This document shows positions 30,178 to 30,310 of a DNA stretch of 64,000 nucleotides, piece after piece. The stretch is taken from assembly GCF_044647545.1 (NCBI RefSeq), contig NZ_CP172818.1, one strand, 5' to 3'. Below the pieces are notes generated by a model. That model was not told the DNA's origin. It searched no databases and worked only from the letters and a program-made list of their open reading frames with translations. Made by a program: the position numbers and the translations under genes. The stretch is from Escherichia coli. Its GTDB lineage: Bacteria; Pseudomonadota; Gammaproteobacteria; Enterobacterales; Enterobacteriaceae. The number at the start of each line of letters is the position of its first letter. Position 1 is the stretch's first letter.

Positions 30178-30184
30178 CCGTCGT

Positions 30185-30310
30185 TGACTCCATGCCGATT
30201 CGGGTTAATCTGGTAGCGATCCCCGTCGATACTTTTGACGAAGGCGGCAGGGATCGCAGAAGGGTTATTGCTCTTTGCCGGGGATAAGCGCTCTGCTTAT
30301 CCCCATCTTA
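30185..30310 (+). ncRNA. possible small RNA in the sgcA-sgcQ intergenic region (RyjB-like position)
   Basis: Hairpin ggggataagcgctctgcttatcccc at about 30281-30305 in a 130-bp intergenic gap; I recall a small RNA (ryjB) annotated here in K-12, but strand and ends are not verifiable from sequence alone. Confidence 0.25.

Follow-up and report, generated by a model that had tools for sequence, protein, structure and literature searches.

The sgcA-sgcQ gap of Escherichia coli carries the known small RNA RyjB, a probable antisense regulator of the sgc operon that is conserved in Enterobacterales

The small RNA GadY reportedly overlaps the 3′ untranslated region of its upstream gene, gadX, and stabilizes it. 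FinP, which works with FinO in F-like plasmids, is a stem-loop antisense RNA complementary to the initiation region of traJ, and formation of the duplex is followed by RNase III cleavage. GadY is catalogued together with RyjB among known antisense RNAs (PMC2912661), and both are also among the abundant double-stranded RNA (dsRNA) loci captured by p19. Here, we analyzed the RyjB locus within a 64,000-nt stretch of E. coli DNA (contig NZ_CP172818.1, called the window below). Both ends of RyjB, the duplex fragments, the binding to ProQ and the Hfq chimeras come from the work of others, and the present analysis contributes the structure and its covariation, the conservation and single-copy status of the unit and the promoter and terminator signals specific to one strand. 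What is added to the known RNA is a corrected 3′ end, the identification of a hairpin as the terminator, a covariation-backed family in Enterobacterales and the hypothesis of an internal promoter.

The sgc operon (sgcXBCQAER, sugar phosphotransferase system [PTS]) occupies positions 28303 to 33878 of the window with all of its genes on the minus strand, and microarrays handle it as a single unit. In the sense direction, sgcX (32727 to 33878), sgcB (32452 to 32730) and sgcC (31127 to 32440) precede sgcQ (30308 to 31114, stop codon at 30308 to 30310), which encodes a BtpA family protein and lies immediately upstream of the gap. Downstream of the gap lie sgcA (29746 to 30177), which encodes a PTS enzyme IIA component, and sgcE (29102 to 29734), both placed by the open reading frame (ORF) table and the K-12 annotation. 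The gap itself extends from 30178 to 30307, and its 130 nt do interrupt an otherwise tightly packed operon, as an earlier reading made from the sequence alone had stated, for every other sgc junction is either an overlap or a spacer of 11 to 16 nt. The translation initiation region of sgcA (30175 to 30191, minus strand) includes a Shine-Dalgarno GGAG at 30188 to 30191 and the ATG at 30175 to 30177, and the Shine-Dalgarno block, GGAGTCAA, was unchanged in all species aligned.

Comparison with E. coli K-12 MG1655 indicated 100% identity over positions 26197 to 35197 (9 kb). Within that segment, ryjB (b4624), annotated at 4527977..4528066 on the plus strand of NC_000913.3, was string-identical to window positions 30174 to 30263 (local offset, 4497803), and the RyjB annotation that the sequence-only reading had named for this K-12 position is thus real. 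As annotated in RefSeq, ryjB is a 90-nt gene on the plus strand, antisense to the sgc operon, that overlaps the start of sgcA by 4 nt and does not reach the main in vivo 3′ end. The feature was missing from PGAP-annotated copies of K-12. We note that a tRNA-Leu(CAA) at 1512 to 1596 (plus strand) would be put inside IS2K of NC_000913.3 by the offset of the sgc locus, and collinearity of the window with MG1655 therefore probably does not extend that far upstream.

The sequence-only reading had proposed that a small RNA might be encoded in the gap and had counted the lack of both a transcript and an Rfam match against it. A match was indeed absent, as a search of Rfam 15 returned nothing in the gap at gathering thresholds and nothing at an E value of ≤10 on positions 30000 to 30500. 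The RyjB transcript, however, has been detected in several published data sets. As Rfam 15 holds no RyjB family, the missing match says nothing against an RNA, and the absence of an Rfam hit was a badly chosen criterion that does not apply to RyjB. Elsewhere in the window, the Rfam search matched group II intron domains D1-D4 at 3388 to 3527 on the minus strand (RF02003; 66.3 bits; E value, 2.6e-12). We conclude that the RNA of the gap is the already known E. coli small RNA RyjB and that the finding is real but ordinary.

The strand and ends of RyjB, which had been left unfixed by the sequence-only reading, are fixed by published end mapping. At the 5′ end, 5′-end sequencing gave an exact match to the annotated end (PMC2912661), and the supplement of the p19 study lists a collated transcriptional start site at U00096.2 4526001, equivalent to window position 30175, and the start of a Conway transcription unit at 4526000, equivalent to 30174 (PMC7373196). 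At the 3′ end, Term-seq (Adams et al. 2021; PMC7815308, supplementary file 1) placed a plus-strand end at 4528112, equivalent to 30309, which scored very highly under two or more of the conditions listed and was classed as the primary 3′ end of ryjB. Scores for that end were 301585 and 278129, and those of neighboring rows ranged from about 1.4e3 to 1.3e5 (PMC7815308); none of the neighboring rows listed was a curated 3′ end at the annotated position 4528066 (30263). Together, these ends delimit a primary transcript of about 136 nt (30174 to 30309, plus strand) that is antisense to the start of sgcA, the whole spacer and the sgcQ stop codon. RefSeq ryjB stops 46 nt short of the main Term-seq end. 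Fragments recovered with Hfq also extend past the annotated gene, as Hfq-CLASH fragments of RyjB run from 30239 to 30308/30313, with others starting at 30231 (total span, 30231 to 30313), and RIL-seq lists "ryjB.sgcQ.IGR" fragments besides "ryjB." We conclude that RyjB is transcribed from the plus strand with a 5′ end at 30174/5 and a main 3′ end at 30309.

The region missing from the annotated gene contains the strong GC hairpin that had drawn attention to the gap. The hairpin, GGGGATAAGC-GCTCT-GCTTATCCCC at 30280 to 30304, has a 10-bp stem and a 5-nt loop and begins 17 nt past the annotated 3′ end of ryjB. Its strength was borne out by folding (−18.4 kcal/mol; z score, about −4.8), and 0 of 200 dinucleotide shuffles folded as well on either strand. 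The Term-seq end at 30309 is the fifth base past the hairpin (…CCCCAUCUU), and this position directly behind the hairpin and an AUCUU tail (30305 to 30309) indicates that the hairpin is the intrinsic terminator of RyjB (30280 to 30309, plus strand) and that the annotated 3′ end, which leaves the terminator hairpin out, is too short. Part of the tail lies opposite the sgcQ stop codon. In E. coli, the tail, AUCUUAUC, is weak, with 4 U residues in 8, and was not called by a consensus scan; the scan called nothing in the gap, with the terminator and the two promoters described below falling just under its thresholds. Among 12 sequences tabulated, 6 of the 10 orthologues outside E. coli and Citrobacter On2M had 5 to 7 U residues in the 8 positions past the folded hairpin, and three further orthologues had tails that were U rich by eye and were partly taken into the predicted stem.

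Termination at 30309 is incomplete. The Conway transcription unit ends at 30448, and a dsRNA cluster reaches 30541 (PMC7373196), both indicative of read-through, and we conclude that the terminator is leaky and that some transcripts run on antisense into sgcQ. A further published plus-strand start site lies at 30433 inside sgcQ, and a Rho-dependent termination region has been published at 31072 on the plus strand, also inside sgcQ. The start site and the Rho-dependent region indicate that antisense transcription covers much of sgcQ, beyond the spacer.

Folding by itself did not indicate which strand is the RNA strand. The whole gap folded at −52.8 kcal/mol (z score, −3.2) on the plus strand and at −42.7 kcal/mol (z score, −2.1) on the minus strand; both strands fold well, and neither the folding energies and z scores nor the covariation described below gave a strand preference. 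The hairpins could also work in the sgc mRNA itself, independently of any antisense RNA, as a sense-strand intercistronic element: a 3′ stabilizer for the sgcXBCQ segment, a processing site or a translational control of sgcA. Such an element would fit the GC hairpin being 3 nt past the sgcQ stop codon in every species, the good sense-strand z scores and a covariation that supports pairing on either strand, and the sense copies of the hairpins are the target of RyjB anyway. Past the GC hairpin, however, most species have 4 to 7 U residues in 8 on the antisense strand and only 0 to 2 on the sense strand, which leaves the sense hairpin without a U tract, and G-U pairs number 44 in the antisense reading versus 21 in the sense reading. 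Moreover, the promoter and terminator signals sit on the antisense strand, and the strong 3′ end is on the plus strand, with no minus-strand 3′ end among the neighboring Term-seq rows listed. We consider a sense-strand element unlikely. The U-rich tails, the G-U pairs and the mapped plus-strand 3′ end instead indicate that the antisense strand is the RNA strand.

To our analysis of E. coli we added a genome scan with SgcQ, which recovered sgcQ followed by sgcA across a spacer of 109 to 131 nt in 12 other Enterobacterales species: four Citrobacter, Salmonella diarizonae, Atlantibacter, Cedecea, Serratia, Lelliottia, Budvicia aquatica, Leminorella and Providencia. On the antisense strand of every enterobacterial spacer, the same parts occurred in the same order, namely, a second hairpin (here, hairpin B), a variable linker and the GC hairpin running into the complement of the sgcQ stop codon. 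A metagenome pattern scan returned 80 loci, one of which (L103) was a true member with the same features as the RyjB unit; of the others, L120 was a weak, unrelated match and the rest were chance matches. A covariance model scored 38 to 108 bits on all 13 sequences from which it was built, found one copy in the 64-kb window (30212 to 30313, plus strand) and gave no match in nonenterobacterial loci or in Budvicia diplopodorum. In the latter (L012:3805-4085), the sgcQ-sgcA spacer has grown to about 280 nt and contains extra hairpins, the block TTGACTCC is lost and the apex of hairpin B is changed. The RyjB-like element thus seems to have decayed naturally in B. diplopodorum, which could serve for comparison. 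SgcQ homologues 68 to 76% identical to the E. coli protein were found in contigs of Firmicutes, Rhizobium, Treponema and Desulfobacterales (L015 to L082), and in each case sgcA was absent from the surrounding 3 kb. Among Enterobacterales, SgcA has diverged far more rapidly than SgcQ, with identities in the same genomes of about 54% versus 85 to 88%.

Covariation supported the structure. Over 13 sequences and 26 pairs, 87.3% of cells were paired versus 76.3 ± 1.2% in shuffles (0 of 500 as high), 11 pairs had double changes, and the covariation score was 0.255 versus 0.08 to 0.13 for controls with slid partners; the alignment was fitted to the covariance model, which favors the structure somewhat. 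MAFFT alignments misplaced the terminators of Serratia, Lelliottia and Leminorella, a fault that the covariance-model alignment mended partly, and covariation of the terminator is therefore undercounted. No RyjB orthologue outside E. coli was found in the RyjB literature accessible to us. We conclude that the RyjB unit is conserved between sgcQ and sgcA in 12 other Enterobacterales species and in one metagenome contig, which is new here.

Conservation of position also bears on the origin of the GC hairpin, which might be a copy of a dispersed palindromic repeat (REP/BIME) with no role specific to the locus. The RepRanger survey labels ryjB as "REP" hosting, and one hairpin arm ends in CTTATCC, which is faintly REP-like. 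Nevertheless, the full hairpin sequence, GGGGATAAGCGCTCTGCTTATCCCC, occurs once in the window, at 30280 to 30304, neither arm recurs in the 64 kb, and the covariance model finds its single match there. Moreover, the gap occupied one place per genome in 1,654 of 1,656 genomes (at most 2), and its orthologous position is kept across genera. A single-copy sequence of this kind rules out a dispersed-repeat origin, which we regard as having next to no probability. The same 1,656 genomes, out of 5,426 complete E. coli genomes, were exactly those that contained sgcQ, and as the spacer always occurs together with the operon, the small RNA is gained and lost with the island. Co-occurrence with the operon fits an earlier report that RyjB has a patchy (polyphyletic) distribution in E. 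coli, and one paper describes it as a variable, laterally acquired E. coli small RNA.

Hairpin B (30216 to 30257, plus strand), which was absent from the sequence-only reading, is the larger of the two gap hairpins and folds at −22.2 kcal/mol (z score, −3.8). Compensatory changes were found in 9 of the 12 pairs of its outer stem, and the 4 pairs of the apex never varied. The apex pairs and loop, ACUUUUGRCGAAGG (30231 to 30244, 12 to 14 nt; ACTTTTGACGAAGG in E. coli, with the apex also written ACUUUUGACGAAGG), stayed unchanged across genera while the stem drifted. When the 64-kb window and 12 sgc loci were searched for a second site complementary to the apex, only weak matches inside conserved coding sequence were found. 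A role purely as a cis-antisense RNA does not account for the unchanged apex, which may be recognized by a protein or by a conserved target in trans. Between the two hairpins lies the linker (30257 to 30276, plus strand), which contains a small hairpin at 30259 to 30276 and the block CAGAAGGGTTATTGC at 30257 to 30271, as delimited by folding, CLASH and alignment. In Hfq-CLASH chimeras, CAGAAGGGTTATTGC is paired with fragments of mRNAs encoded in trans. The linker block was confined to Escherichia, Citrobacter, Salmonella and Cedecea and was an alignment gap in other genera.

Variability of the linker argues against a coding function for the gap. RyjB does contain an ATG-initiated ORF of 31 codons, MPIRVNLVAIPVDTFDEGGRDRRRVIALCRG, at 30192 to 30287 on the plus strand, and the gap might on that account encode a small protein. 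The ORF has no Shine-Dalgarno sequence upstream, however, and its frame is broken by linker indels. Moreover, the ATG is missing in Citrobacter amalonaticus, Salmonella and all more distant members, such that start codon and frame are unconserved outside E. coli and two Citrobacter genomes. We rejected the ORF as a protein-coding gene and consider a small protein extremely improbable.

Inspection of the sequence upstream of the mapped 5′ end revealed a weak candidate sigma-70 promoter within the codons of sgcA, which we define as P1 (30139 to 30167, plus strand). P1 consists of TTTACG (30139 to 30144), a 17-nt spacer and TAATAT (30162 to 30167), and it would place the start at 30174, in agreement with the 5′ end mapped in published work. 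With 8 of 12 consensus matches, P1 fell under the 9-of-12 threshold of our scan. A second candidate, P2 (30184 to 30211, plus strand), lies within the gap and consists of TTGACT (30184 to 30189), a 16-nt spacer and TAATCT (30206 to 30211), with a predicted start at about 30218. P2 also matches 8 of 12 consensus positions, its E. coli −10 hexamer fitting at 3 of 6, and its −35 element is the complement of the sgcA Shine-Dalgarno block.

The two promoters differ in their conservation. A P1 score of 8 of 12 or better was confined to 3 of 12 species, and the five genera most distant from E. coli (Serratia, Lelliottia, Budvicia, Leminorella and Providencia) had a destroyed P1 −10 element. At P2, TTGACTCC (30184 to 30191, plus strand) was unchanged, and a TAnnnT hexamer followed exactly 16 nt on in 11 of 13 members despite divergence of the intervening 16 nt. 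The hexamer is TAATCT in E. coli; TACTCT in Citrobacter, Salmonella, Cedecea and the metagenome member; TATTGT in Budvicia and Leminorella; TATGGT in Atlantibacter; and TATGCT in Providencia, and the species that lack P1 carry the better, TATnnT form. Hairpin B always began 4 to 8 nt past the P2 −10 element. On the strength of the conserved geometry of P2 and the poor retention of P1, we propose P2 as the ancestral promoter and P1 as a later extension that brought in the segment complementary to the ribosome-binding site.

The conserved unit might then be the product of P2, an RNA of only about 92 nt (30218 to 30309); P1, and with it the 44 additional nt that lie over the sgcA ribosome-binding site, would be a recent addition in the branch of Escherichia, Citrobacter and Cedecea. 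A length of 92 nt is near the annotated 90 nt, and one p19 cluster begins at 30213/4 (PMC7373196). In E. coli, however, the available start-site data all fall at 30174/5 and none were seen near 30218, and the supplements of the Cappable-seq and SMRT-Cappable-seq studies contained no rows for the RyjB locus. Moreover, the E. coli hexamer is poor, Serratia and Lelliottia have no TAnnnT at 16 nt, and the complementarity of TTGACTCC to the sgcA Shine-Dalgarno sequence could alone account for part of the conservation. We judge the balance to tip slightly against a P2-derived unit, and such a unit refines rather than replaces the account of RyjB as an antisense RNA of the sgc operon.

Evidence that RyjB meets its antisense target comes from dsRNA captured with the tombusvirus p19 protein. 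Perfectly complementary read pairs of 21 to 22 nt were recovered at 30214 to 30262, for example, ACGAAGGCGGCAGGGAUCGCA with CGAUCCCUGCCGCCUUCGUCA, and the dsRNA clusters extended from 30180 to 30541, a locus that was among the most abundant small RNA-associated dsRNA clusters (PMC7373196). The complementary pairs indicate that RyjB and the sgc mRNA form a duplex in vivo that is cut by RNase III. The annotated RyjB 3′ end at 30263 falls 1 nt beyond position 30262, where one abundant RNase III duplex read stops, and the annotated 90-nt form may therefore correspond to an RNase III-cut 5′ part of the transcript. As for proteins, binding of RyjB to ProQ has been reported both in vivo and in a bacterial three-hybrid assay, and the latter gave no signal for Hfq. 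Hfq-CLASH nevertheless yielded chimeras in which CAGAAGGGUUAUUGC was paired with unrelated mRNAs, and RyjB may, on that evidence, act mainly in trans. In a published electrophoretic mobility shift assay, SlyA did not bind the 130-bp gap, which argues against a DNA-level role for SlyA there.

We consider it highly probable that the gap is the RyjB gene, antisense to the sgc operon and ended by the GC hairpin, and that its RNA pairs with the sgc mRNA and lowers or uncouples expression of sgcA-sgcE-sgcR, the last being the outcome we infer. In the mechanism that we propose, RyjB would start at 30174/5 in the first codons of sgcA from the weak sigma-70 promoter P1, and transcription would pass through hairpin B and the short linker and stop at 30309 behind the GC hairpin. 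The RNA is perfectly complementary to the ribosome-binding site and start codon of sgcA and to the whole intercistronic spacer; by its position in the sequence, the sgcA initiation region lies entirely under the 5′ part of RyjB. ProQ-bound RyjB would then pair with the polycistronic sgc mRNA, RNase III would cleave the duplex, and expression of sgcA-sgcE-sgcR would presumably be lowered or uncoupled relative to that of sgcXBCQ.

A bolder scenario, which we offer tentatively as possible rather than probable, is that RyjB, far from being a recent oddity of the K-12 type, is an ancient component that has become fixed in the sgc operon across Enterobacterales. RyjB would originally have been made from a promoter whose −35 element, TTGACT, is complementary to the sgcA Shine-Dalgarno block, with a 12-nt apex read by a protein or by a conserved trans target. 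The E. coli branch would later have added the upstream promoter, extending the RNA over the sgcA ribosome-binding site, and the annotated 90 nt would be the RNase III-cut 5′ part of the 136-nt RNA.

The corrected 3′ end matters in practice, as constructs, deletions and quantitative PCR assays based on RefSeq use a truncated RyjB that lacks the last 46 nt, including the terminator. The alignment and structure could seed the missing Rfam family and thereby allow annotation of RyjB in Citrobacter, Salmonella diarizonae, Cedecea, Serratia, Providencia and other genera. Moreover, the covarying stem, the unchanged apex and the conserved internal promoter-like element are cheap mutational handles on how an antisense RNA embedded in a sugar PTS operon would control that operon.

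Compared with known systems, the RyjB terminator resembles intrinsic terminators in its GC-rich 10-bp stem, 5-nt loop and 3′ end in a U-containing tail, and whereas the orthologues have canonical tails of 5 to 7 U residues, that of E. coli RyjB has only 4 in 8. Like FinP, RyjB is a short stem-loop antisense RNA directed at the initiation region of its target and has a FinO-domain protein partner, which for RyjB is ProQ. Unlike FinP, RyjB is chromosomal, lies inside an operon rather than at a 5′ untranslated region and has an extra linker that is used in Hfq chimeras. Like GadY in the gadX-gadW spacer, RyjB is an opposite-strand small RNA encoded between cotranscribed genes that pairs with a polycistronic mRNA in a duplex cut by RNase III. 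The two differ in where they pair, as GadY lies on the 3′ untranslated region of the upstream gene and RyjB, in E. coli, on the ribosome-binding site and start codon of the downstream gene, a position that makes repression a more likely outcome than stabilization of the GadY type.
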